64,000 nt of DNA. Origin: Clostridia bacterium (GTDB lineage Bacteria > Bacillota > Clostridia > Christensenellales > QALW01). Under the pieces are notes generated by a model, which was given only the letters and a program-made list of their open reading frames with translations, was not told where the DNA came from and searched no databases. Both the position numbers and the translations under genes were made by a program. The stretch is from contig JAZQII010000043.1 of NCBI GenBank assembly GCA_045541035.1, positions 64,539 through 128,538 on the forward strand, in the 5' to 3' direction. How positions within the stretch are numbered: position 1 is the first letter of the stretch; each line of letters begins with the position of its first letter. Below are positions 2-9,243 of the stretch, one piece after another.

Positions 2-613
2 AAAAAAGCATATCTTGATGGCTATGATACAACTTATATTCCCGAAGACGGTAATGCCGTTGCAGTGCTTTTCGGTATTTCCGATGAAAAACGCACAAAG
101 GAAATTTTAGAAACAGTTAAAAAGGAAACATGGACGCCCTACGGTGCATCAATGATAAATTCAGATTCGCTTAAAATTCGTGATGAATATCGAACCATTT
201 CTCCCGTTATGAATATGTATGAAGCGGAAGCACGCTTCTTAAATGACGATGAAGAAAACGCCCTTGAACTTATAAAGCGTTGCTGGGGCGGTATGCTTAA
301 AAAAGGTGCTGAAACTTTTTGGGAGTTTATCTCCAATGACGAAACAAAAAGATGGCATATCCCTGCACACGGTTGGGCATCAGGCTGTTGCTATCTCTTT
401 GGTGCGTACGTTTTAGGTATTCGTCCCAATAAATCAGGCTATGAGGAAGTGCTTTTCTCCCCCGCCGAAACACTTGAAAACTATAAAGGCGTTGTTCCAA
501 CAAAGAAAGGTCTTATCGCAATAAAAAAAGAGAATGGCAAATATACTATCGCCATCCCCAAGAGCGTTAAACTTATAACAGAAGTTAAAAACGTTGAGAT
601 TATTGAGTACTAA
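2..613 (+). CDS. Glycoside hydrolase, GH78 alpha-L-rhamnosidase-like, C-terminal fragment (5' end lies outside the window)
   Basis: The frame is open from nt 2 (KKAYLDGYDTTYIPEDGNAVAV precedes the tracked start), so the gene is cut by the window edge. CWGGMLKKGAETFWE and PAHGWASGCCYLFG resemble the end of the (alpha/alpha)6 domain and the C-terminal sandwich of bacterial rhamnosidases. This is recognition from memory, with no search. Confidence 0.5.
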   Translation, partial: KKAYLDGYDTTYIPEDGNAVAVLFGISDEKRTKEILETVKKETWTPYGASMINSDSLKIRDEYRTISPVMNMYEAEARFLNDDEENALELIKRCWGGMLKKGAETFWEFISNDETKRWHIPAHGWASGCCYLFGAYVLGIRPNKSGYEEVLFSPAETLENYKGVVPTKKGLIAIKKENGKYTIAIPKSVKLITEVKNVEIIEY

Positions 614-624
614 AAAATATTCAC

Positions 625-666
625 AAAAAACCGAACCCAATAAAATTCTTGGGTTCGGTTTTCTTT
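625..666. terminator. Bidirectional intrinsic terminator between convergent genes
   Basis: AACCGAACCC (629-638) pairs with GGGTTCGGTT (651-660). An A-run lies upstream and a T-run downstream. Confidence 0.7.
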
Positions 667-672
667 GTACTA

Positions 673-1323
673 TTATTTAATAATCTTATAGCCGATATGT
701 CCCGACATAATGTTAGGATCGTGGAACAGAAGAGGAATGATTTTATTATTACTGAATTCTTCAATAAACCTCCGGCTAAGCTTTTCATCGTATGAGGCGC
801 CGGTGCAAATTTTATCCGTCAAACATTTTTCATAATAACATTCATCGCCAACAAGTAGGTAGTTATCTGCCAAAACGACACAAGAGCCTATGGAATGTCC
901 ACCGATTTTCTTTATTCTTACGTTCTCATCCAATAAAAATTCATCATCGAACAAATGAACATTGAAGCTCTCAGGAATGTACTTTTTCGCTTCAATATAT
1001 TCGTTTTTTTGGATGTGTATAACGGCATTTGTATAATACTTGATAGCTTCCATGTGGTCGTGGTGCGAATGTGTAATGATAACATCGGTGATGTTATTTG
1101 GCAAGAGTCCATACTCTTTTAAAACATCAACGGGTTTTTGGAATTGGGACATTTCAAAGCCTGCACCATCATCACAGCCTACGTCAACAAGAATATTTTT
1201 GTTTTCGGTTTGTATCAAATAGATTGTAAATGAAATCGGCAAAAGTTTATCTTTGTTTCCGCCTTTAAAAATAAAGTTTTCTCCAAAAACGGACTCTCCG
1301 TATTTTAACGCTACGATTTTCAC
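673..1323 (-). CDS. MBL-fold metallo-hydrolase, lactonase-like
   Basis: 216 aa with the HxHxDH metal motif (ITHSHHDH). The GTG start overlaps the upstream stop (TAGTG). Confidence 0.7.
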   Translation of the reverse strand: MKIVALKYGESVFGENFIFKGGNKDKLLPISFTIYLIQTENKNILVDVGCDDGAGFEMSQFQKPVDVLKEYGLLPNNITDVIITHSHHDHMEAIKYYTNAVIHIQKNEYIEAKKYIPESFNVHLFDDEFLLDENVRIKKIGGHSIGSCVVLADNYLLVGDECYYEKCLTDKICTGASYDEKLSRRFIEEFSNNKIIPLLFHDPNIMSGHIGYKIIK

Positions 1324-2312
1324 TAAATCTCTAATACTACCTTTCCAATATTCTCACCGCGATAAAGAATATCGTGTGCTTCTTCTGCTTCGGTAATGGG
1401 AAGAATCTTATGAATAGTAGGTTTAACGGAGCCGTCTTCCACCTTGGGGAACACTTCATTTACAAGGCTTGAAAGGATCTGTGCTTTCATTTGGGGTGTA
1501 CGCGAGCGAAGGGTACTGCCAACAATTCTAACATTCTTTTTATAGATATTTTTAAGGTCGATATTGGTGTTTGTGCCTGCAAGTGCCGCAATAACTATCC
1601 AGCGACAGCCGTACTTAACGTAAGGAAGACAATCGCCCAAATTCTGTCCGCCAAGGCAATCGATGGCAATATCAACGGCTCTGCCTGCTTCTTCCTCTTT
1701 CTTTAAAACTTCGGGAAGGCTTTCTTTTCTTGTGTCAACAATTAAATCTGCGCCAAGATGCTTGATATTTTCAGGATCGGAAATTACAGTTGTGATAACG
1801 CGAAGATCAAAGGCTTTTGCCATAGGGATCACTACGCTTGCAAGACCTGAAGCGCCTGCCTGCATTAAAAGTGTGTCGCCCGCCTTTGCTTTGCCCTCAA
1901 CAAATAATTTTAAATATGCCGTTGCAAAGGCTTCGGGAATAGCCGCCGCTTCAGCCATAGAACAGTTTTTTGGAACGGGCATACACATACCGTACTCAAC
2001 GGAAACATACTCGGCATATCCGCCGCCGCCAAGCAAGGCGCAAACCTTATCACCGATTTTATAGTTTGATTTTTCCTTTGCACTCTCCGTCATTTCAACG
2101 ATCTCGCCTGAAACCTCAAGTCCCATCCATTCAGGGCAACCTTCGGGAGGCGGATAATCACCTTCACGTTGCATAAGATCGGCTCGGTTAAGTGCCGCGT
2201 ATTGAACTTTTATTAAAACTTCATCTTTCTTTAATGCGGGATATGGCACGTTATCCCATCTTAAGCTTTTATCGTCATTTACAAGAATTGCTTTCATTAC
2301 TTTTTTATCCAC
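1323..2312 (-). CDS. NAD(P)H quinone oxidoreductase (MDR superfamily, PIG3/Qor-like)
   Basis: 329 aa. AALNRADLMQREGDYPPP and GASGLAS Rossmann features are present. The GTG start is preceded by GGGGGA. Confidence 0.75.
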   Translation of the reverse strand: MDKKVMKAILVNDDKSLRWDNVPYPALKKDEVLIKVQYAALNRADLMQREGDYPPPEGCPEWMGLEVSGEIVEMTESAKEKSNYKIGDKVCALLGGGGYAEYVSVEYGMCMPVPKNCSMAEAAAIPEAFATAYLKLFVEGKAKAGDTLLMQAGASGLASVVIPMAKAFDLRVITTVISDPENIKHLGADLIVDTRKESLPEVLKKEEEAGRAVDIAIDCLGGQNLGDCLPYVKYGCRWIVIAALAGTNTNIDLKNIYKKNVRIVGSTLRSRTPQMKAQILSSLVNEVFPKVEDGSVKPTIHKILPITEAEEAHDILYRGENIGKVVLEI

Positions 2313-3329
2313 TTAAATATTCCCCCAATCAAACAATACACCTATTGGGAAATTTTTCTCGGTTACTAATCTGTTATAAATCTCATTTGCCTCTTTGGGT
2401 GAATGAATTTCGCAAATCATATCCTTAAAATTAAGGCGTTTTCCCTTAATAAGATTTAAAATTGCTCTAAGATCGTCGGCATCTGTCCACAATCCTGCAG
2501 ATGATTCTTTCTTCGGGCGTGCCATTGTATGGGCACCGATCAACGATATTCCTCTGCCGTGAACCTTACCGTAATAGTCAATTTCAAAATGCGAGCTTCT
2601 GGTGCAACCAAGAAGTGCAACTCTGCCCATTTGTTTCATACAATCAAGTGCTTGAATCAAACCGACACCAAGACCGGTTACTTCGATACAAACATTCACT
2701 CCGCCATCGCTTAGCGCTATAACGTCCTTTGTGAAAGTATCACTTGTGGGATCAAGAACATAATCTGCACCCATTTTTAAAGCAAACTCTCTGCGTTCTT
2801 TCACCGGATCAACGGCAATAACGGGATACGCGCCTGCCGCCTTTAACTGCTGAACTGCAAAAACGCCAAGAATTCCAAGCCCCATTACCATTGCGGATTC
2901 CCCGATTTCAAGATACGTTTTTCTTATAGCCGCAAGAGGAAAAGTGGAAATCAACGCCATAGATGCTTCCTTGGTGGAAACCTCATCGGGAATTTTAATT
3001 ACATTATTTCTGCTGATGGTAATATTCTTTTTATGCTTTCCCCAATAAACAACAACTCTGTCCCCGACCTTAATGTCAGTTACTTCACTGCCTATCTCAG
3101 TTACAATTCCCGCGGAACTGTAACCAACCGTTATTGGAAATGTAACCTCTTCATCTTCTGCCACGGTCGTTCCGTTTCTTGCTCCGATAAAGTTTGCCTT
3201 TTCTGTTCCTGAACTGATTGCCGAGTATTCAAGGCTTACCGTTACCTCATCTGCCTTAGGGGGCAGGCACGGAACATCAAGAAGTTCGGCTGTATACGGT
3301 GCGGTAAACACTATTTGTTTTGTTTGCAT
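2313..3329 (-). CDS. Zinc-type alcohol/polyol dehydrogenase (MDR family)
   Basis: GroES-like N-domain plus a GLGILG Rossmann motif. I moved the start to MQTKQIVF (3329), directly after the upstream stop at 3332. Confidence 0.7.
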   Translation of the reverse strand: MQTKQIVFTAPYTAELLDVPCLPPKADEVTVSLEYSAISSGTEKANFIGARNGTTVAEDEEVTFPITVGYSSAGIVTEIGSEVTDIKVGDRVVVYWGKHKKNITISRNNVIKIPDEVSTKEASMALISTFPLAAIRKTYLEIGESAMVMGLGILGVFAVQQLKAAGAYPVIAVDPVKERREFALKMGADYVLDPTSDTFTKDVIALSDGGVNVCIEVTGLGVGLIQALDCMKQMGRVALLGCTRSSHFEIDYYGKVHGRGISLIGAHTMARPKKESSAGLWTDADDLRAILNLIKGKRLNFKDMICEIHSPKEANEIYNRLVTEKNFPIGVLFDWGNI

Positions 3330-3331
3330 AA

Positions 3332-4327
3332 TCACACTTCCTTTCCGCAAGATCTAAGTATCAACTTATAAAGACCAAGCTCATAATCATAAGAATACGG
3401 GTTTTCTTTTCCTCTTATTATTTCTGCAAAATTGCGCATCATATGATCATAACGGTCATATATCTCCGATTTGCTTGTTTCCCACTCTTTATACCAATTA
3501 GCGCTATATGCTTCGTTCATTACGGTATATTGACCGTTTTCTGTCGGAACCTCAAGAGGTTTTATTTCTATAGTTCCTTTTTCACCGCAAATAACAAGCT
3601 GTCTTCTTAAAAAGCCACCGCTTTCGTTTGCGCAGGTTTTGGCAAAAGATACTCCGTTTTTATATTTTAATGCAACCATTCCGTAATCATCGGCTGTAAC
3701 GCCATCACAACCGGTTGAACAATTAAGAGGTATAATTTTTTCCGGCTCGCCCTGAATCTGATAAATTAAATCAAGAAGATGGCATCCCAAGAAGAACAAC
3801 ATTCCTCCGGGGAAATTCTCAAGCCATTGTCTGATCTCAGCAGAATGTTTACAGTCCATATGCGCTTCAACCGAATATATTTCACCAAGCTCGCCGTTTT
3901 TTATTTTCGCAAAGGCTTCTTGGATCTTTGGATTAAAGCGATACATATATCCCGTTGAAAAAGTCAGGTTTTTAGATTTTAATATTTCAATAAGTTTTTC
4001 AAAATCATCATAATCAACACCGCCCGGTTTTTCCATATGCAGATGCTTGCCTGCTTTTGCTGCCATAAGAGCATATTTGGTAAGGTAAATTTCCTCCGTT
4101 TCCACCGCAACCGCTTCGATGGTGGGATCATTCAATATCTCTTCTACCGTCATCTCCTTATAGCCTTCAAATATTTTTACCTTTTCTGGAAACTTTTCCC
4201 TTTCATTTTCAGGAAGTGCATATCCTGCAACTTCAAAAATATCTTCTTGCTTTAAGAAGCTGTTCCATATATGATAACCGTGGCTGTTTCTACTTGTGCC
4301 TATTTGTGCAACTCTTATTTTTTTCAT
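3332..4327 (-). CDS. Gfo/Idh/MocA family oxidoreductase
   Basis: N-terminal Rossmann MKKIRVAQIGTSRNSHG and the family EKP motif (HLHMEKPGG). I moved the start to 4327, which has a GGAG RBS. Confidence 0.8.
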   Translation of the reverse strand: MKKIRVAQIGTSRNSHGYHIWNSFLKQEDIFEVAGYALPENEREKFPEKVKIFEGYKEMTVEEILNDPTIEAVAVETEEIYLTKYALMAAKAGKHLHMEKPGGVDYDDFEKLIEILKSKNLTFSTGYMYRFNPKIQEAFAKIKNGELGEIYSVEAHMDCKHSAEIRQWLENFPGGMLFFLGCHLLDLIYQIQGEPEKIIPLNCSTGCDGVTADDYGMVALKYKNGVSFAKTCANESGGFLRRQLVICGEKGTIEIKPLEVPTENGQYTVMNEAYSANWYKEWETSKSEIYDRYDHMMRNFAEIIRGKENPYSYDYELGLYKLILRSCGKEV

Positions 4328-4343
4328 ATTATAATGCTCCATT

Positions 4344-5132
4344 CTATATAATATCAGGATAAAAATCAAAATTATCACGTACTGCTTTTACTGCTTTCAC
4401 CGTAGGCTGAGTGGGTACTGCACATTCATCGTGTTCGCGCACCGCAAGATACATTGAGCATCCTAACTGACCGCCGATCATTCTGTGAATTTTTGAGTGA
4501 GTTCCGCCCGATAAGAACAAGAACGGCACTTTAAGTTCTTTTTTGAGCAGAGTGGTAATTCTCAGGTTTTCCATTTCTTCTTCAACGGAATTGCCTGCCG
4601 TTACGATCTTAACAACGTCAGCACCGCGCTTTTGTTGTTCATATGCGATTTCAAGAACAGTTTCAGCAGGGGTAAATTTTAACACGTGGGAGGACATAAG
4701 TGCTTCCTTGCCCATATGGTGTATCCTATCAATAAGTCTTTTCTGTTTATCGATGGCATCCTGCTTCATTGAAAGCTCTAAGCCAATACCCATACCCGAT
4801 TCGCTATCAAAGGCACTGCCCATAACATCACCTAAGGTTGCACCGCATTTTAAAGCAACCAGAAGCTCTTCGGTGATCTCTTCATCACTTAATCCTTCAT
4901 TTTGTTGTGCGCGGTAGTTAGTAATATAAATAGGATGATTTGAGCAAGAAGCAAATATATTTCTATAGTTTTCTTCAGTTTTAAACTCTCTTTTCAAGCG
5001 TTCAAGCTGAATTCCCAAACAGTCTGCCCCATCATAAATCGAGTTTTTAACTGCAAAACGGATTGCATCGGGATTATCCTTTAATATCATTGAAGTAATT
5101 AAAGGTTGATTCTGATTTAAGAATGTTGCCAT
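4344..5132 (-). CDS. Type I 3-dehydroquinate dehydratase (AroD)-like protein
   Basis: 262 aa. VVKIVTAG gives a Schiff-base Lys context. FLSGGTHSKIHRMIGGQLGCSMYLA resembles the AroD C-terminal MSMG..SR....FGS region. No other shikimate genes are nearby. Confidence 0.5.
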   Translation of the reverse strand: MATFLNQNQPLITSMILKDNPDAIRFAVKNSIYDGADCLGIQLERLKREFKTEENYRNIFASCSNHPIYITNYRAQQNEGLSDEEITEELLVALKCGATLGDVMGSAFDSESGMGIGLELSMKQDAIDKQKRLIDRIHHMGKEALMSSHVLKFTPAETVLEIAYEQQKRGADVVKIVTAGNSVEEEMENLRITTLLKKELKVPFLFLSGGTHSKIHRMIGGQLGCSMYLAVREHDECAVPTQPTVKAVKAVRDNFDFYPDII

Positions 5133-5896
5133 TGTTTTTCCCTCTTCATAGCATTTCTGCCACCATCAATCATAATATTTTCGCCGTTGATAAACTGACC
5201 TTTATCAGATGCAACAAAAAGCACAAGGTCGATAATTTCCTGCGGTTCAGCGGCACGACCTAACAAAGTCTTCATATTTGCCATTGCGGCTCTTGTAAGT
5301 ACGGGGCCCGGTGAAATGCAAACGCATCTGATATTGTAGGGTGCACCGAACTGGGCAATGGACTTTGTTAAGCCAAACATAAGCCCTGCCTTTGCGGTAG
5401 GATAATCCATACCGTAGCCATCACCCTCCTGACCTGTAATTGAGCCGATATTTATTATTAAACCACTTTTCTGCTGACGCATTACCTTTGCGGCGGCGTG
5501 GGCAAAATAGAAAGGTCCTTTTAAGTTTACGTCAATACCCCAATCGTAAACGTCAATGGGAACATCGGGAAATTCAGGACATTCTTCCATATTAACCTTG
5601 CACATTCTTGTTGCCGTTCCGCCTGCAAAATTGCAAACCATATCAAGTGAGCCAAACTCTTTAACCGCTAAATCTACTGCGGCACAAACTTGTTTATAAT
5701 CTCTTACATCACAAAGACAAGCAACTGCCTTGCCCTGATTTTTTTCATTTATTTCTTTTACTTTTTCATTTAAAACTTCTTCGTTTACGTCACACATTAC
5801 AACGTTGCCGCCTAAAGAAGCAAAGTTCTGTGCAAACAAAAGTCCCATACCTGACGCGGCACCTGTTGAAATTGCTGCTTTGCCTTTAAATTCCAT
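5117..5896 (-). CDS. SDR family oxidoreductase
   Basis: TGAASGMG cofactor motif and YPTAK (YxxxK). I moved the start to MEFKGKAA (5896), which has a GGAGA RBS. Confidence 0.8.
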   Translation of the reverse strand: MEFKGKAAISTGAASGMGLLFAQNFASLGGNVVMCDVNEEVLNEKVKEINEKNQGKAVACLCDVRDYKQVCAAVDLAVKEFGSLDMVCNFAGGTATRMCKVNMEECPEFPDVPIDVYDWGIDVNLKGPFYFAHAAAKVMRQQKSGLIINIGSITGQEGDGYGMDYPTAKAGLMFGLTKSIAQFGAPYNIRCVCISPGPVLTRAAMANMKTLLGRAAEPQEIIDLVLFVASDKGQFINGENIMIDGGRNAMKREKQWQHS

Positions 5897-5909
5897 AATA
5901 ATTTCTCCT

Positions 5910-6632
5910 TTAAATTTTCTTTCTGCAACCATCAATCTGATAGTCCTGACCTGAAATATATGCTGCCTTATCACTTGCAAGGAAGCTGATAAGATAAGCG
6001 TATTCCTCTAATTTGCCGGTTCTTCCCATATAACATTGTTCATTTTCGATTTTAGCATCTTCATTTCTGATTGTGCCGGGAACAACGTTATTTACCGTAA
6101 TGCCATATTCAGCGACCTCTTTTGCAAGTGCCTTGGTAAATGAGCTTACCGCACCCTTGGTCATTGAATAATCAACCATATTTGCATTGCCGTAAACTCC
6201 TGCTACTGAGCCGATGTTGATAATTCTGCCATAATTATTTTCTATCATATTAGGAAGAACTTCGTGGCTAAAATACATAAGCCCCAAAATATTAACGTTT
6301 ATCTTCTTTTTCCATTCTTCACTTGTCGTTTCAACAAAAGTTCCCCAAGTGCGCCACAGACCGGCATTATTCACAAGAATATCAATTTTGCCGTAAGTTT
6401 TGATCGCATCTGCCACGACCTCTTTTACGCGATTTTCGTCGCTTACGTCGCACACATATGCTGAAGCATTTGCACCCATTGTTTCAATTTGATTTTTTAC
6501 AAGTTCGAGTTTTTCACCATCAATATCAACAATGCACACATTTGCACCTTCTTTGGCAAATTCCAATGCCGTTGCCTTTCCAAGACCGATAGATGCACCG
6601 GTAACAACAACAGTTTTATTCTTAAATTCCAT
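5910..6632 (-). CDS. SDR family oxidoreductase (FabG-like)
   Basis: TGASIGLG, NNAG and YSMTK (YxxxK) motifs. Confidence 0.85.
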   Translation of the reverse strand: MEFKNKTVVVTGASIGLGKATALEFAKEGANVCIVDIDGEKLELVKNQIETMGANASAYVCDVSDENRVKEVVADAIKTYGKIDILVNNAGLWRTWGTFVETTSEEWKKKINVNILGLMYFSHEVLPNMIENNYGRIINIGSVAGVYGNANMVDYSMTKGAVSSFTKALAKEVAEYGITVNNVVPGTIRNEDAKIENEQCYMGRTGKLEEYAYLISFLASDKAAYISGQDYQIDGCRKKI

Positions 6633-6656
6633 AAATGCACCTCCATTATTTTGTTC

Positions 6657-6685
6657 ATTATATCATCTTGCCAAATTCTTTTCAA
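6657..6685 (-). promoter_or_regulatory. Candidate sigma-A promoter of the redox operon
   Basis: On the minus strand, TTGAAA (6685-6680), a 17-nt spacer, then TATAAT (6662-6657). Confidence 0.55.
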
Positions 6686-6696
6686 TATGCTATACT
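6668..6696 (+). promoter_or_regulatory. Candidate sigma-A promoter of the AraC regulator gene
   Basis: TTGCCA (6668-6673), a 17-nt spacer, then TATACT (6691-6696). It overlaps the divergent operon promoter. Confidence 0.5.
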
Positions 6697-6738
6697 ATAA
6701 AAAAAGTAACTATTCTGTAATTTAGGAGATTTTCACCG

Positions 6739-7494
6739 ATGAAAAAAGGAATTTTTGTGTCAGAACTGTCTTTTCAAAAACACGTTTTCAATAAATTTCA
6801 CTTCTGTCGCGGTAATAACAGTAAGCGCAAATCAAGACTGGGTATTATTTTAAAAGGTTCAGGCACATATTTATACTTAAACAAAAAACTCGACGTAAAA
6901 AAAGGTGACGTTGTTTTTATTCCTGAAAATATCTTTTGTTATTCTTCCTGGCAAGGTGAACCTGAAATTGAAGTTTTATACATAAGTTGTTTTATTCACT
7001 ATGAAGGCTTTCAATATGAGCCGCAAACGGTAAACTGTCAGCAAAGCACAAAAGATGATCTTTTGAAAATATCAGAACTTCTAAGTTCTGATTACCTTGA
7101 CGAACTTGAAGCCTATTCCCTTTTTTATAAAGTTCTTAAAACTATTTTGCCCCAAATGAAAATATCAAACTTTGCTTTTGACAAAACACTTCAGATAGCC
7201 ATTGAATATTTATCTGAAAATTGGGATAAGGATTTTTCGGTAAGTGATCTTGCGAAAAAATGCCTTATAAGCGAATCTTCAATATACCACTTGTTTCAAA
7301 AAGAAATGGGACAAACTCCCGTTAGTTTCCTTAATTCAATAAGAATCAACAAAGCCATTGAATTTCTGGAAAACACAAACTATTCTGTTTCAACTATCAG
7401 CAACATGGTAGGTTTTAATTCGGAAAATCATTTCAGAAAAGTGTTTGTTTCGCTCACCGGTACAACACCCTTAAAATTTAGAAAGAGAACGTAA
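6739..7494 (+). CDS. AraC family transcriptional regulator
   Basis: C-terminal double HTH (SVSDLAKKCLISESSIYHLFQKEMGQTP ... STISNMVGFNSENHFRKVF) and a cupin-like N-terminal domain. It is divergent from the operon. Confidence 0.85.
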   Translation: MKKGIFVSELSFQKHVFNKFHFCRGNNSKRKSRLGIILKGSGTYLYLNKKLDVKKGDVVFIPENIFCYSSWQGEPEIEVLYISCFIHYEGFQYEPQTVNCQQSTKDDLLKISELLSSDYLDELEAYSLFYKVLKTILPQMKISNFAFDKTLQIAIEYLSENWDKDFSVSDLAKKCLISESSIYHLFQKEMGQTPVSFLNSIRINKAIEFLENTNYSVSTISNMVGFNSENHFRKVFVSLTGTTPLKFRKRT

Positions 7495-7515
7495 AAAACG
7501 GTGAAAATTCACCGT
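7495..7515. repeat. Direct repeat copy 1 (terminator-type palindrome AAAACGGTGAAAATTCACCGT)
   Basis: Perfect 8-bp palindrome preceded by A6. On the minus strand it reads as a hairpin plus U6. Confidence 0.7.
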
Positions 7516-7645
7516 CAGTCTGCTGACAAAGTCAGCAGGCTGCCAGAGTTCGAGAAACCCTTGCAAGCCAAGACGCGGTGTTCTAAAAGCGAGGGCGCTT
7601 ACAAAGTCGTAAGTAACCGAGCTTTTATGGTTACCGCAACAAAGG

Positions 7646-7680
7646 AAATAAAGACCTGCGAGTGCAGGTCTTTATGTTTG
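7646..7680. terminator. GC-rich hairpin with U-rich flanks on both strands
   Basis: AAGACCTGC-GAGT-GCAGGTCTT (7651-7672), followed by TATGTTT on plus and ATTTCCTTT on minus. Confidence 0.5.
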
Positions 7681-7701
7681 CATGGGTTTGTCAGTGCTCT
7701 G

Positions 7702-7721
7702 AAAACGGCAAAATTCACCGT
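7702..7721. repeat. Direct repeat copy 2 (AAAACGGCAAAATTCACCGT)
   Basis: Identical to copy 1 except TG is replaced by C. It is followed by TTTTATTTT. Confidence 0.7.
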
Positions 7722-7722
7722 T

Positions 7723-9243
7723 TTATTTTATATATTCATTTAATTTTTCAGTGTCAAGCTTATCAAAGCTCTTAAGCACGGGATAAAGCTTTTGTGCGAT
7801 GATCTTTACGCCGCCTTCAATATTACTTTCAATATTAAGCGGCATTAAAGGCTCGTGCAGGGACATTCTTAATAGGAACCAACCATCACCGTCTTCAGCA
7901 TCAAAGGATACTCGGATGCCCTCGTAGTTATCGGGAGCAACTTTCCATCCATCAGCTTCTTTTGCATAAGCGCTGACTGCACCAATAACTTTCTCCCCGA
8001 AAGGTTTGAAATCATCAAGTGCAATGTTCATTCTGAACTCTTTGCTTTCAATGGGTTCTTCAAGACCTAAAAGAAGATCTTCCAGCTTTTTGCCCTGTTC
8101 CTTAAGTTGTGCAGCCTTAATAAGAAGTTTCGTTACTAAATATGCACCGTCATCAAGGAAATAGTTTTCCTTTAATGCCGCATGACCGCTTGTTTCAATG
8201 GCTAAAGGACAATACTGTCCCTCTTTATTAAGACGGATAGCCTCGTTTATAACGTTCTTATATCCGCGTTTAAAACGGTGATGCATTCCGCCGTGATTTT
8301 CAATAAACTTTTTAAGTCCGCTTGAGGTGATAGAATCTGTAACTATAACCGCAGGCTTTCTTTCTTCAAGGAGAATTGCCGAAATAAGTGCAATAAGTTT
8401 GTTTCGGTTTATTTCCTTACCGCATGAATCAACTGCGCCTGCGCGGTCCACGTCAGTATCGAAAATAATACCCATATCAGCCTTGGCATTTATTACTGCG
8501 CGTGTTACGAATCCCATTGCTTCTTCATTTTCAGGATTGGGAATATGGTTAGGGAACGTTCCGTCAGGCTCTAAAAACTGACTTCCCGTTGTATCTGCCC
8601 CTAAAGGCTCAAGAACTTTTGTAGCATAGAATCCGCCTGCGCCGTTGCCTGCATCAACAACTACTTTAAATCCTTTTAACGGCTTTTCAAAATTTTCCTT
8701 TGAATTAACGGCATTGCGCACCTTATTTACAAGAATTTCAGCATAGTTTGACAAAAAATCATATTCTGAAACCTTGCCTTCTTTATAAGGAAGTTTCTTT
8801 CCCTCTTGGGCATTCTCAAGAATAGCCTCAATATCAGAACTTTCACATCCGCCTGCTTTAGTGAAGAACTTTAAACCGTTTCTGTCATAAGGCAAATGGC
8901 TTGCAGTGATCTGAATTGAACCGTCGCAATCAAGTTCAGGCACAATATTTGTCATAAACATTGCAGGTGTTGAAATGAGCCCGCAATCAAAAACAGTAAT
9001 GCCTGCATCTTTAAGTGCAGAAATTACAGCCGTTTTAATTCTTTGTGCGGAAATTCTTGAATCGTGCCCTACCGCTACCTTAAGTTCATCTTCACCTACA
9101 GTATCTTTAAGCCAGCAAGCAAAGCCGGAAGCAATAGCGCTTACCTTTTCATCTGTAAGATTTACTTTGCCGTTTTCACTTTCAACAGCAATGCCTCTTA
9201 TATCAGAGCCGTTTTTTAAATTTTTCCATTCTTTTTCTAACAT
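7723..9243 (-). CDS. Phosphoglucomutase/phosphomannomutase family protein (alpha-D-phosphohexomutase)
   Basis: 506 aa with the phosphoserine loop TASHLPYDRNG and the metal loop FDTDVDR. Confidence 0.85.
   Translation of the reverse strand: MLEKEWKNLKNGSDIRGIAVESENGKVNLTDEKVSAIASGFACWLKDTVGEDELKVAVGHDSRISAQRIKTAVISALKDAGITVFDCGLISTPAMFMTNIVPELDCDGSIQITASHLPYDRNGLKFFTKAGGCESSDIEAILENAQEGKKLPYKEGKVSEYDFLSNYAEILVNKVRNAVNSKENFEKPLKGFKVVVDAGNGAGGFYATKVLEPLGADTTGSQFLEPDGTFPNHIPNPENEEAMGFVTRAVINAKADMGIIFDTDVDRAGAVDSCGKEINRNKLIALISAILLEERKPAVIVTDSITSSGLKKFIENHGGMHHRFKRGYKNVINEAIRLNKEGQYCPLAIETSGHAALKENYFLDDGAYLVTKLLIKAAQLKEQGKKLEDLLLGLEEPIESKEFRMNIALDDFKPFGEKVIGAVSAYAKEADGWKVAPDNYEGIRVSFDAEDGDGWFLLRMSLHEPLMPLNIESNIEGGVKIIAQKLYPVLKSFDKLDTEKLNEYIK

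Follow-up and report, generated by a model that had tools for sequence, protein, structure and literature searches.

A seven-gene operon facing an AraC-type regulator

The window, a 64,000-nucleotide stretch of DNA from a Clostridia bacterium, carries near its start seven tightly packed open reading frames, all on the minus strand between positions 673 and 6632, with a gene for an AraC-type regulator divergent from them. The features, in order of position, are:

65..613, plus strand: terminal part (3') of a gene for a GH78 alpha-L-rhamnosidase, a convergent neighbor cut by the window edge (identity to syntenic loci)
627..662, no strand: intrinsic terminator, bidirectional, separating the GH78 gene from the operon's end (14-bp stem with an A run on one side and a T run on the other)
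673..1323, minus strand: MBL-fold metallo-hydrolase, 216 aa, AiiA-like (Pfam Lactamase_B, 48.5 bits; HSHHDH motif)
1323..2312, minus strand: PIG3/TP53I3-type NAD(P)H quinone or enone reductase, a zinc-less MDR, here Qor (TIGR02824)
2313..3329, minus strand: MDR-superfamily oxidoreductase without zinc sites, paired with Gfo (Pfam ADH_zinc_N, Glu_dehyd_C, partial ADH_N)
3332..4327, minus strand: Gfo/Idh/MocA NAD(P) oxidoreductase (three Pfam domains above cut-offs; EKP motif)
4344..5132, minus strand: type I dehydroquinase-like (AroD-like) protein, whose gene is the cluster's hallmark (Pfam DHquinase_I, 57.2 bits)
5117..5896, minus strand: SDR2, a classical SDR and near-universal partner, its gene directly upstream of the AroD-like gene (Pfam adh_short, adh_short_C2; YPTAK catalytic motif)
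5910..6632, minus strand: SDR1, a classical SDR and the first gene of the operon (Pfam adh_short, 196 bits; TGASIGLG and YSMTK motifs)
6633..6738, no strand: divergent control region, with TTGAAA-17-TGATATAAT at 6685..6657 (minus) for the operon and TTGCCA-17-TATACT at 6668..6696 (plus) for the AraC gene
6739..7494, plus strand, divergent: AraC/XylS-family regulator (Pfam HTH_18, 71 bits; HTH_AraC also matches)

An earlier note on this DNA had placed seven co-directional genes from 6632 down to 673, and all seven are indeed found there on the minus strand. It had also given the gaps between them as 0-16 nt, which holds for most junctions: with refined starts, SDR1 is separated by 13 nt from SDR2, whose true start is the ATG at 5896, and the gaps are 16 nt between the AroD-like and Gfo genes, 2 nt between the Gfo and MDR genes, and 0 or 15 nt between the MDR and Qor genes, depending on whether Qor starts at 2312 or 2297. 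The SDR2/AroD-like junction, however, is a 16-nt overlap once the starts are refined. The Qor and MBL genes share a single base in TAGTG, as had been read. The domain identities of all seven products and of the AraC protein were assigned with Pfam and NCBIfam, and with these models we likewise recovered no transporter, kinase or aro gene within the operon. The operon promoter, TTGAAA-17-TATAAT with an extended TG, is the best match in 8 kb in a promoter scan (11 of 12 positions), and the AraC promoter facing it bears out the back-to-back arrangement claimed for the two. The GH78-like neighbor, too, is what it had been taken for: while the fragment at 65-613 alone has no match in Pfam, it shares 63-97% identity with the C-terminal ends of the 700-aa GH78 genes (Bac_rhamnosid_N/6H) of the syntenic loci L001, L006 and L007. 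This gene and the operon are probably not co-transcribed.

The AroD-like protein, on its own branch of the type I dehydroquinase fold

The AroD-like protein matches E. coli AroD in hhalign with a probability of 97.4%, and the top 43 matches in the PDB recovered with Foldseek are all type I dehydroquinases, using a structure model that is of moderate quality (pLDDT 66) and poor at the N- and C-termini. Judged by its sequence, it is nonetheless a distinct branch of this fold, as its NCBIfam aroD score is only 50.8, far under the cut-off of 139.3, only 549 representatives among 1.84 billion match it, and the members of its family share a specific insertion (GDxFDP...ELT...QK). The earlier note had singled out the catalytic Lys/His pair, and this is retained: K175, H149, R217 and Q242, the equivalents of Lys170, His143, Arg213 and Gln236 of dehydroquinase, are near-invariant, being kept by 159-172 of the 174 members of the family, which extends down to about 33% identity. 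Lys170 is the Schiff-base lysine, His143 the catalytic histidine, and Arg213 and Gln236 are the carboxylate-binding residues. In contrast, Glu46, Arg48 and Glu86, which are present in true dehydroquinases, are replaced throughout this branch; when dehydroquinate binds, its C4 and C5 hydroxyls are held by the first two. These replacements mean that the chemistry could differ, for example in being an aldol cleavage or an isomerization. The activity that we propose as most likely for the protein is that of a Schiff-base beta-eliminating dehydratase.

The accompanying oxidoreductases and hydrolase

Qor passes the cut-off of TIGR02824 (330.7 against 296.8 bits) in an alignment that begins at residue 6, and the ATG at 2297 is its likely start. 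Its nearest structures are 4dup and human PIG3 (2j8z, 2oby), with E-values of 1e-54 to 1e-57. MDRs of this zinc-less QOR/PIG3 type reduce C=C bonds or quinones. The domain calls of the earlier note agree with those from Pfam and NCBIfam except in the case of the second MDR protein, which it had termed Zn-ADH-type. That identity is ruled out by an alignment to E. coli Tdh, in which Cys38 is replaced by Ser and His63-Glu64 by Tyr-Ser, while a deletion of 28 residues corresponds to the structural-zinc lobe, so that both the catalytic Cys/His/Glu ligands and this lobe are gone. The Gfo protein lies well under the IolG cut-off (66.6 against 355), and its nearest structures, YhhX, DgpA and YjhC, are all weak matches. 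For the MBL protein, the best curated models are lactonases, at scores far under their cut-offs (43.9 against 375), and the matches to AiiA structures are weak.

A recurring core with optional modules

Across 64 species-level genomes, all from uncultured gut Clostridia (with counts made over 54 or 40 loci), we observed a recurring core in which a divergent AraC gene faces genes for an SDR, the AroD-like protein and a PIG3-type reductase. At 49 of 54 loci, an immediate neighbor of the AroD-like gene is a dehydrogenase gene in the same orientation; the PIG3-type reductase lies within 5 kb of the AroD-like gene in 30 of 40 and is missing from that range in the other 10, and 33 of 40 have a divergent AraC gene no more than 3 kb away. 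SDR1 occurs in a subset of loci, Gfo in 11/40 and MBL in 14/40, the last always accompanying Qor, even where Gfo is missing. Gfo with its zinc-less MDR partner, and MBL, are optional modules. The genes of the operon do recur together in other genomes, as the earlier note had anticipated, but the seven are not an obligate set: the syntenic sister species L001 has neither the Gfo/MDR pair nor MBL.

The flanks of the cluster differ between genomes and often contain glycosidases (GH78, GH29, GH2, GH3, GH116) and esterases, and nine divergent loci, with no more than 65-80% identity between their proteins, share an intergenic block of some 70 nt almost unchanged. Based on these varying flanks, the divergent AraC arrangement and the nearly invariant control region, we interpret the cluster as an inducible-looking, AraC-regulated accessory operon, inducible as had been supposed from the single locus. 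It is patchy in its distribution, accessory and probably laterally transferred. A set comprising an AroD-like gene, SDRs and an NAD(P)H-quinone oxidoreductase recurs on a Mesorhizobium plasmid. The gene order, domains, residue conservation, co-occurrence and conserved control region are established, pointing to a real cluster that is widely conserved in uncultured herbivore-gut Clostridia. We found no characterized counterpart of it in the curated families or the searchable literature, consistent with the earlier remark that it matched no familiar textbook catabolic operon.

A proposed deoxygenation pathway and its alternatives

We give roughly even chances to the reading that the operon effects a cofactor-simple deoxygenation, by oxidation, dehydration and reduction, of a plant-derived polyhydroxylated six-membered compound. 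A polyhydroxylated ring is a plausible substrate, and candidates for it are keto-deoxy sugar acids, sugars, cyclitols and quinate-like hydroaromatic acids; the presence of distant AroD-like relatives beside sugar ABC transporters (CUT1, CUT2), FAH hydrolases and an enolase-type aldonate ('galactonate') dehydratase favors sugars, sugar acids or cyclitols. In such a pathway, an NAD(P)-dependent dehydrogenase, usually SDR2 and in some relatives an extended SDR or a Gfo enzyme in its stead, would oxidize a secondary alcohol to a ketone. Lys175 of the AroD-like protein would then form a Schiff base with this ketone, and His149, acting as acid/base, would help to eliminate the beta-hydroxyl across an unsubstituted alpha-CH2 to yield a conjugated enone, mirroring the conversion of 3-dehydroquinate to 3-dehydroshikimate by dehydroquinase. 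The C=C bond would next be reduced by the PIG3-type MDR, whereupon SDR1, along with Gfo and the zinc-less MDR where present, would set or reset the other ring carbonyls or hydroxyls, which could permit a second round. Finally, the MBL hydrolase would open a lactone or other ester in either the product or the substrate. The roles suggested for Gfo, the zinc-less MDR and MBL are guesses. We infer that an ene-reductase would be needed only if the alpha-carbon bears no hydroxyl, a condition that agrees with the 3-deoxy-ketone geometry found in both dehydroquinate and 4-oxidized 3-deoxy-2-ulosonic acids. PIG3-type enzymes may, however, act on quinones rather than enones, and the cluster, with neither a transporter nor a link to central metabolism, may modify or detoxify its compound rather than catabolize it.

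A special case of this mechanism, which we consider rather unlikely, is a reductive quinate/shikimate route in line with the candidate substrates named in the earlier note, wherein an SDR makes 3-dehydroquinate, the AroD-like protein converts it to 3-dehydroshikimate and Qor reduces this to 3-dehydro-dihydroshikimate, with further reduction or dehydration leading to dihydroshikimate or 3,4-dihydroxycyclohexanecarboxylate. Whiting and Coggins reportedly described such a sequence biochemically in cider lactobacilli in the 1970s, and the rumen turns quinate into cyclohexanecarboxylate, which implies the same. The homology to dehydroquinase would suit this route, as would the retained equivalents of Lys, His and the two carboxylate-binding residues, Arg213 and Gln236, but Glu46 and Arg48, the holders of the C4 and C5 hydroxyls, are replaced family-wide along with Glu86. 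The enone 3-dehydroshikimate needs exactly an ene-reductase, and the operon offers several different ring-alcohol dehydrogenases; yet there is no AroE/YdiB-type quinate dehydrogenase or organic-acid transporter in the 64-kb window or at any locus. That the carriers are all gut anaerobes, from herbivores, birds and Hadza humans, fits a plant metabolite, and gut bacteria do consume quinate (PMC5726620). GDSL or SASA esterases inside some clusters could release quinate from chlorogenates, although they are of acetyl-esterase types, and a glycyl radical enzyme carried by two loci could strip the remaining vicinal hydroxyl. The linkage of the distant relatives to neutral-sugar transporters, FAH hydrolases and aldonate dehydratase also argues against quinate.

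These same linkages, together with lactate/2-hydroxyacid dehydrogenases beside the relatives, lend some support to a route for sugars or sugar acids that is non-phosphorylative and, in our estimate, unlikely. There, a 2-keto-3-deoxy acid would be cleaved by the AroD-like protein, working as an aldolase of class I (Schiff-base) or a C-C lyase; the SDRs would be sugar 1- and 4-dehydrogenases and MBL a sugar lactonase. Candidate substrates of the route are L-rhamnose or L-fucose freed by the neighboring GH78 and GH29 enzymes, with a gene for one or the other flanking the cluster in at least four lineages, or else Kdo or Dha from rhamnogalacturonan II. Dehydroquinase I is itself a member of the class I aldolase superfamily, and Pfam detects a weak DeoC/LacD match on the AroD-like protein (23.2 bits); moreover, an Amidohydro_2 protein, of a lactonase-type family, is found within the L019 cluster, and a KDGal kinase/aldolase gene near L005. 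However, the Clostridial clusters have no aldonate dehydratase to supply a 2-keto-3-deoxy acid, the equivalent of His143, a residue peculiar to the dehydratase mechanism, never varies, no obvious role would be left for the PIG3-type reductase, which ranks second among the partners in constancy, and the scores with the LRA1, IolG and lactonase models all fall far short of the cut-offs. We hold it quite improbable that the cluster instead detoxifies or modifies a membrane-permeant plant aglycone or unsaturated lactone of the coumarin, butenolide or terpenoid type, with the SDRs and the AroD-like protein preparing an enone, Qor acting on the conjugated double bond and MBL opening the lactone. Transporter genes are absent from the inside of every cluster, MatE efflux genes adjoin two, MBL never occurs without Qor, and aglycone-releasing glycosidases are frequent neighbors; but most loci lack MBL, the relatives are linked to sugar transporters, and the small polar pocket of the dehydroquinase fold, with its invariant Arg217 and Gln242, suggests a small carboxylated or polyhydroxylated ligand. 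It is most improbable of all that the AroD-like gene encodes a biosynthetic 3-dehydroquinate dehydratase placed by chance among unrelated oxidoreductases, even though it passes the Pfam gathering score and public annotation pipelines label family members 'type I 3-dehydroquinate dehydratase'. The earlier note had likewise set aside aromatic amino-acid biosynthesis, and several findings speak against it: the curated aroD equivalog cut-off is missed by far, the three dehydroquinase residues are replaced, neither the 64-kb window nor the loci hold another aro gene, and the patchy cluster maintains a tight, conserved linkage to SDR, Qor and AraC genes across the 64 genomes.

Organization and control of the operon

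The operon is a catabolic or modifying set of oxidoreductases built around a divergent dehydroquinase-fold enzyme. Seven consecutive open reading frames occupy the minus strand of the window between 673 and 6632, with a regulator gene diverging from them on the plus strand (6739-7494). Searches with Pfam and NCBIfam models recovered every domain assignment made earlier for these genes, apart from the 'Zn' in the label of one MDR. Junctions were measured after shifting gene starts to ATGs with homologue support. The 0-16 nt gaps of the earlier note stand for the other junctions, but that between SDR2 and the AroD-like gene is an overlap of 16 nt. The overlap that it read as TAGTG between the last two genes is indeed one of a single base.

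Features of the operon and its flanks, in window coordinates
65-613: 3' end of a GH78 rhamnosidase gene, from homology to complete GH78 genes in syntenic loci
627-662: bidirectional terminator of 14 pairs, closing the operon
673-1323, minus: MBL
Qor/MBL junction: one-base overlap, TAGTG
1323-2312, minus: Qor, a PIG3-type MDR
MDR/Qor junction: 0 or 15 nt
2313-3329, minus: zinc-less MDR
Gfo/MDR junction: 2-nt gap
3332-4327, minus: Gfo (Gfo/Idh/MocA)
AroD-like/Gfo junction: 16-nt gap
4344-5132, minus: AroD-like (type I dehydroquinase-like)
SDR2/AroD-like junction: 16-nt overlap
5117-5896, minus: SDR2
SDR1/SDR2 junction: 13-nt gap
5910-6632, minus: SDR1
6685..6657, minus: operon promoter TTGAAA-17-TATAAT with TG upstream, the best sigma-70-like match in the first 8 kb
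TTGCCA-17-TATACT site: faces the AraC gene, back to back with the operon promoter
6739-7494, plus: AraC/XylS regulator

A promoter scan thus reproduced the back-to-back promoters described before, and complete GH78 homologues in syntenic loci likewise bear out the GH78-type gene next door. The regulator has the C-terminal double helix-turn-helix of the AraC/XylS family (HTH_18, 71 bits; HTH_AraC, 57 bits). In the control region between it and the operon (6633-6738), a block of ~70 nt that includes both promoters is nearly invariant across nine loci (alignment A5 of the divergent control region), the proteins of which are only 65-80% identical; this near-invariance is good indirect support for regulation at the divergent control region. 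The block carries two similar elements, TTGCAGAAT and TTGCAAGAT, ~47 nt apart, which may be AraC half-sites. Between the AraC gene and a convergent phosphoglucomutase gene, an 80-aa reading frame (7501-7743) coincides in part with two hairpins that resemble terminators (7516..7497 and 7675..7648), and it probably does not code for a protein.

The AroD-like protein and its family

When solved structures are searched by sequence, the AroD-like protein matches only type I dehydroquinases, and these weakly. Its AlphaFold (AF2) model is of moderate quality (pLDDT 66, pTM 0.71), with both termini too poorly defined for the pocket to be analysed; the top 43 PDB matches of this model in Foldseek are all type I dehydroquinases, at 13-17% identity, and a profile of 174 family members aligns with E. 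coli AroD at an hhalign probability of 97.4%. AF2, Foldseek and hhalign therefore agree on a (beta/alpha)8 class I aldolase-like fold. The protein exceeds the looser gathering score of Pfam PF01487 (57.2 against 22.2 bits) and stays far below the cut-off of the curated aroD equivalog TIGR01093 (50.8 against 139.3 bits). Together with the mere 549 relatives that came from exhaustively searching 1.84 billion cluster representatives, this low score sets the family apart as a compact branch, clearly distinct from canonical AroD. An exact-sequence look-up of the protein gave no match. One match in the cluster-representative search, P0133, was discarded as a scoring artefact: it is a 4335-aa cadherin-like repeat protein that owes its high rank to 23 summed weak stretches.

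Dehydroquinase residues and their equivalents in the AroD-like family
Schiff-base Lys170: K175, kept in 172/174 members
General acid/base His143: H149, kept in 170/174 members
Arg213 (carboxylate/lid): R217, kept in 170/174 members
Gln236 (carboxylate/lid): Q242, kept in 159/174 members
Glu46: replaced by Gly (G40)
Arg48: replaced by Gln (Q42)
Glu86: replaced, with no conserved acid (N78 or Q77)

The catalytic Lys/His pair, loss of which would have undone the earlier interpretation, is thus retained. The region of Arg82 aligns ambiguously, with either Y73 or R74, and the family has an insertion of its own of ~25 residues with GDxFDP, ELT and QK motifs. A first hhalign register, with a 4-residue gap in strand beta-2 that equated E44 with Glu46, was rejected because a deeper profile and two HMMER alignments agree on an ungapped one. 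As judged from these alignments, half of the substrate-binding shell differs from that of dehydroquinase, and the protein belongs to the dehydroquinase fold without demonstrably being a dehydroquinase.

Partner enzymes

Both SDRs have the TGxxxGxG cofactor motif and the Ser...YxxxK catalytic motif of classical SDRs (SDR1: adh_short 196 bits, TGASIGLG and YSMTK; SDR2: 137.7 bits, TGAASGMG and YPTAK). Gfo comprises an N-terminal Rossmann and a C-terminal domain, with three Pfam domains above their cut-offs and an EKP motif within 'MEKPGG'. The MDR at 2313-3329, previously called 'Zn-ADH-type', does not deserve the name: Ser, Tyr and Ser stand in place of the catalytic zinc ligands Cys38, His63 and Glu64 (Tdh numbering), and a deletion of 28 residues removes the structural-zinc lobe with its four Cys, a loss of zinc sites common to five orthologues. 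This brings it closer to the zinc-less, C=C-reducing branch than to alcohol dehydrogenases. Qor scores 330.7 bits against the PIG3 subfamily model TIGR02824, above its cut-off of 296.8, and matches human PIG3 (TP53I3) structures with E 1e-54. We know of no physiological substrate established for bacterial members of this family; what distinguishes Qor from PIG3/TP53I3 is its setting in a conserved operon, which suggests an enone substrate. The MBL protein has the metal motif HxHxDH as HSHHDH and reaches at best 43.9 against the AiiA, YtnP and 4-pyridoxolactonase equivalogs (cut-off 375), which speaks for its fold and not for its function. No gene of the operon other than Qor attains a specific NCBIfam cut-off, and PDB sequence searches with SDR2, Gfo and MBL gave generic or weak neighbours only.

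Conservation of the cluster across genomes

A scan of species-representative genomes yielded 64 loci with an AroD-like gene, all from uncultured Clostridia (Oscillospiraceae, Acutalibacteraceae, Ruminococcus and Lachnospiraceae) sampled from the gut of sheep, goat, deer, rabbit, chicken, Hadza human and similar sources; the nearest genomes are two MAGs with 99% identity to the window. The proteins of the window, together with ORF families defined de novo, were mapped to these loci, and the counts cover only those with enough flanking sequence.

Genes found with the AroD-like gene
Adjoining, co-directional NAD(P) dehydrogenase gene: 49/54 loci
PIG3-type reductase within 5 kb: 30/40 loci
Divergent AraC gene within 3 kb: 33/40 loci
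MBL gene nearby: 14/40 loci
Gfo gene nearby: 11/40 loci
Zinc-less MDR gene nearby: 10/40 loci

The expectation that the seven genes co-occur is thereby upheld only in part: they do recur together, but in the form of a core to which optional modules are added, and the seven do not make a fixed unit. MBL co-occurs with Qor, and Gfo and the zinc-less MDR are nearly always found together, with an extended-SDR ('Epimerase') family replacing or accompanying them in other loci; some clusters have an insertion of GDSL or SASA esterases or of an Amidohydro_2 protein. In a sister species (L001:3422-9717), an AraC gene and SDR-SDR-AroD-like-Qor lie between the same flanks as in the window (65-7494; EamA and phosphoglucomutase on one side, GH78 and CNNM on the other), without Gfo, zinc-less MDR or MBL. 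Comparison of the two shows recent gain or loss of modules at a site that has stayed fixed in the chromosome. Elsewhere the flanks vary by genome, with extra AraC regulators and glycosidases of the GH2, GH3, GH29, GH78 and GH116 families; the pooled flanking genes are heterogeneous and contain no recurrent transporter or pathway gene, the exporter and transporter genes among them being two MatE and one MFS. The AroD-like proteins of Lachnospiraceae (Eisenbergiella, Acetatifactor) show ~80% identity, as do those of Oscillospiraceae, and a TraG-like conjugation gene lies directly after one cluster (L017:15570-16727), which together suggest lateral transfer of the operon.

At two unrelated loci (L051:3878-10744 and L067:8953-12507) the cluster is accompanied by a PFL-like glycyl radical enzyme (GRE) and its radical-SAM activase, at L051 in a co-directional row of Gfo - activase - GRE - SDR - SDR - AroD-like. 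Its role could be that of a radical dehydratase acting on a vicinal diol, or else of a propanediol dehydratase tied to the use of rhamnose and fucose.

Searches of plasmid records with tblastn found family members of 27-33% identity on megaplasmids of cultured organisms. In Mesorhizobium sp. B2-1-8 the row reads FAH-family hydrolase, AroD-like, D-lactate dehydrogenase, three SDRs, DUF4286, an NAD(P)H-quinone oxidoreductase (36% identical to the window's Qor) and an SDR. On a plasmid of Halobellus limi (L073:8240-10870), where the genes carry generic RefSeq annotation, an SDR gene separates two tandem AroD-like paralogues, preceded by two MaoC-domain genes and by genes for an MDR dehydrogenase and an enolase-type 'galactonate dehydratase'; close by are 2-hydroxyacid dehydrogenases and a sugar ABC transporter. 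One further contig has SDR-FAH-2-hydroxyacid dehydrogenase, AraC, and AroD-like - MDR - CUT2 monosaccharide-type ABC transporter, and another a CUT1 sugar ABC transporter - Gfo - AroD-like. The Lys, His and Arg are kept in all of these relatives, and the Gln in all except one Halobellus limi paralogue. Since related arrangements occur in Mesorhizobium, Halobellus limi and both contigs, the pairing of an AroD-like protein with NAD(P) dehydrogenases is old and spans phyla. The surroundings of the relatives look more like catabolism of sugars, sugar acids or cyclitols than of hydroaromatic acids.

Proposed reaction and its alternatives

For the conserved trio of dehydrogenase, AroD-like protein and PIG3-type reductase we propose an oxidise-dehydrate-reduce mechanism, a reading that we hold to be about as probable as its negation. 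The dehydrogenase would provide a ketone, the AroD-like enzyme would eliminate the beta-hydroxyl by means of Lys175 and His149, and the PIG3-type zinc-less MDR would reduce the resulting enone to saturation; the other dehydrogenases would set further ring positions, and MBL would open a lactone or ester. An ene-reductase is required only if the carbon between ketone and leaving group bears no hydroxyl, because the enol otherwise tautomerises, which points to substrates with a CH(OH)-CH2-C(OH)(X) motif. In dehydroquinase Arg213 and Gln236 hold the carboxylate and the C1 region; the invariant Arg217 and Gln242 thus suggest that X is a carboxylate. Quinate-type hydroaromatic acids and C4-oxidised 3-deoxy-2-ulosonic or 2-keto-3-deoxy sugar acids would fit this motif, and cyclitols or neutral sugars possibly would if Arg217 served another role. 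Among substrate classes we consider sugars and sugar acids a real possibility, though short of probable, and cyclitols rather unlikely.

That the operon acts on quinate or shikimate is a chemically elegant reading, which we regard as unlikely. Whiting and Coggins reportedly described a reductive metabolism of quinate and shikimate in lactobacilli in the 1970s, and in the rumen quinate is converted to cyclohexanecarboxylate; to our knowledge, genes have not been assigned to these conversions, the biochemistry of which has been known since that decade. The predicted steps, with hydroaromatic dehydrogenases, a dehydratase and a double-bond reductase, agree with this metabolism, as does the anaerobic, plant-fed habitat in herbivores, and the glycyl radical enzyme at L051 and L067 could remove the remaining vicinal hydroxyl. 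However, the hydroxyl-binding residues of dehydroquinase are altered, the cluster has no acid transporter, the contexts of the relatives are sugar-like, and tblastn found no AroE/YdiB-type quinate/shikimate dehydrogenase in the window or any locus. For this reading, PMC5726620 offers no more than the consumption of quinate by gut bacteria.

A class I aldolase activity of the AroD-like protein would suit its weak DeoC match and the FAH, lactate-dehydrogenase and rhamnosidase contexts, but it would leave the invariant His and the ene-reductase without explanation and would call for an aldonate dehydratase, which the Clostridial clusters lack; we think it distinctly unlikely. Detoxification of permeant lactones or aglycones, which would account for both the absence of transporters and the Qor-MBL pairing, fits poorly with a small polar dehydroquinase pocket and is improbable, as are aglycones or lactones as a substrate class. 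An ordinary biosynthetic AroD is effectively excluded. The AroD-like protein does share with AroD (EC 4.2.1.10; Salmonella 1QFE/3M7W, E. coli b1693) the TIM barrel, both catalytic residues (Schiff-base Lys and His) and the counterparts of Arg213 and Gln236, and its chemistry is likely the same, a beta-elimination of water from a beta-hydroxy ketone. Nevertheless, identity is only 13-21%, the aroD score is below cut-off, Glu46, Arg48 and Glu86 are replaced, the insertion is peculiar to the family, and in the loci the gene is never beside shikimate-pathway genes, its conserved partners being SDR, Qor and AraC. The rest of the window, with housekeeping and polysaccharide-synthesis genes, has no aro genes either, and the earlier denial of a role in aromatic amino-acid biosynthesis holds.

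Comparison with known pathways

The earlier note knew of no textbook catabolic operon with this composition, and membership in the iol, DgpA, NanOx and LRA systems, to whose oxidise-then-eliminate logic the cluster is akin, indeed fails because curated scores are too low and hallmark enzymes are missing. In the iol pathway, the Gfo/Idh/MocA dehydrogenase IolG precedes the inosose dehydratase IolE and the ring hydrolase IolD. Our cluster would resemble it in logic, with oxidation of a cyclitol hydroxyl followed by dehydration beside the ketone, and does resemble it in the Gfo/Idh/MocA enzyme of some clusters and in relatives linked to CUT2 ABC transporters. However, it lacks homologues of IolE, IolD, IolB and IolC (Pfam finds no IolE or IolD domain in the operon), Gfo is optional and far below the IolG equivalog (66.6 against a cut-off of 355), the AroD-like protein has another fold and would employ a Schiff base instead of a metal, and an ene-reductase has no part in iol pathways.

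The non-phosphorylative L-rhamnose/L-fucose route proceeds through LRA1 (SDR), LRA2 (lactonase), LRA3 (dehydratase) and either LRA4 (aldolase) or LRA5 (SDR) with LRA6 (FAH hydrolase). Two SDRs and a lactonase-like hydrolase in the operon, rhamnosidase and fucosidase genes adjoining the clusters, and distant AroD-like relatives beside FAH hydrolases and lactate or 2-hydroxyacid dehydrogenases all recall it. Yet the Clostridial clusters have neither an enolase- or IlvD-type aldonate dehydratase nor an FAH hydrolase (Pfam detects no enolase, IlvD or FAH domain in the window operon), the NCBIfam LRA1 model scores 118.5 against a cut-off of 400, and the known route includes no PIG3-type reductase or dehydroquinase-like protein.

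DgpA belongs to a C-glycoside 3-oxidase system and NanOx/YjhC acts on anhydro-sialic acid; in these, as in BT2158-type 3-keto-glycoside systems, NAD-dependent oxidation enables beta-elimination, followed by reduction. DgpA and YjhC are both among the structures nearest to Gfo, but the resemblance is slight (E 1e-11 to 1e-14), the models for BT_2158/2159 give 15-23 bits against cut-offs of 650-750, there is no lyase of the DgpB/C or sugar-phosphate-isomerase type, and elimination here would fall to a Schiff-base enzyme. Bile-acid dehydroxylation shares the logic of oxidation before elimination; bile-acid, phloroglucinol, isoflavone and lignan pathways were set aside on comparing domain content with the hallmark enzymes of those pathways.

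Novelty and wider significance

Searches of curated libraries and of full-text literature found no description of the AroD-like family or the operon and no characterised equivalent, and PMC10216370 has nothing that bears on them. AraC-controlled oxidoreductase operons of unknown substrate are common in gut Firmicutes; the present one stands out for an unusually conserved, mis-annotated signature enzyme and a clear, testable mechanism, with a real chance of accounting for a classical plant-metabolite conversion. A bolder reading, which we advance as no better than speculative, is that the family comprises a new class of Schiff-base dehydratases which, with SDR and PIG3-type ene-reductase, carry out a radical-free reductive dehydroxylation not described before and form the missing genetic basis in the gut for conversion of dietary quinate and shikimate to cyclohexanecarboxylate. 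The products in herbivore-gut Clostridia would then be dihydroshikimate, hydroxycyclohexanecarboxylates and cyclohexanecarboxylate, from which the benzoate and hippurate of urine derive. More generally, the type I dehydroquinase fold, to which nearly all work ascribes one function, would acquire another reaction or, failing that, another substrate; a systematic mis-annotation of hundreds of sequence clusters now labelled '3-dehydroquinate dehydratase' would be mended; and a compact, NAD(P)-only removal of hydroxyls from plant polyols would be defined in strict anaerobes. With quinate or shikimate as substrate, this would amount to a gene-level account of the host-microbe co-metabolism of dietary quinate to hippurate, and with a sugar acid or cyclitol, to an unrecognised branch of gut carbohydrate catabolism in a group without cultured representatives.

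Farther along the window (13594-63989), all 40 reading frames of at least 150 aa lie on the minus strand. They include housekeeping genes (AspRS, purine synthesis, formate-THF ligase, FBPase) and a large surface-polysaccharide locus with GT2 and GT1 transferases, two pyruvyl transferases, two UDP-glucose dehydrogenases, an aminotransferase and acetyltransferases.
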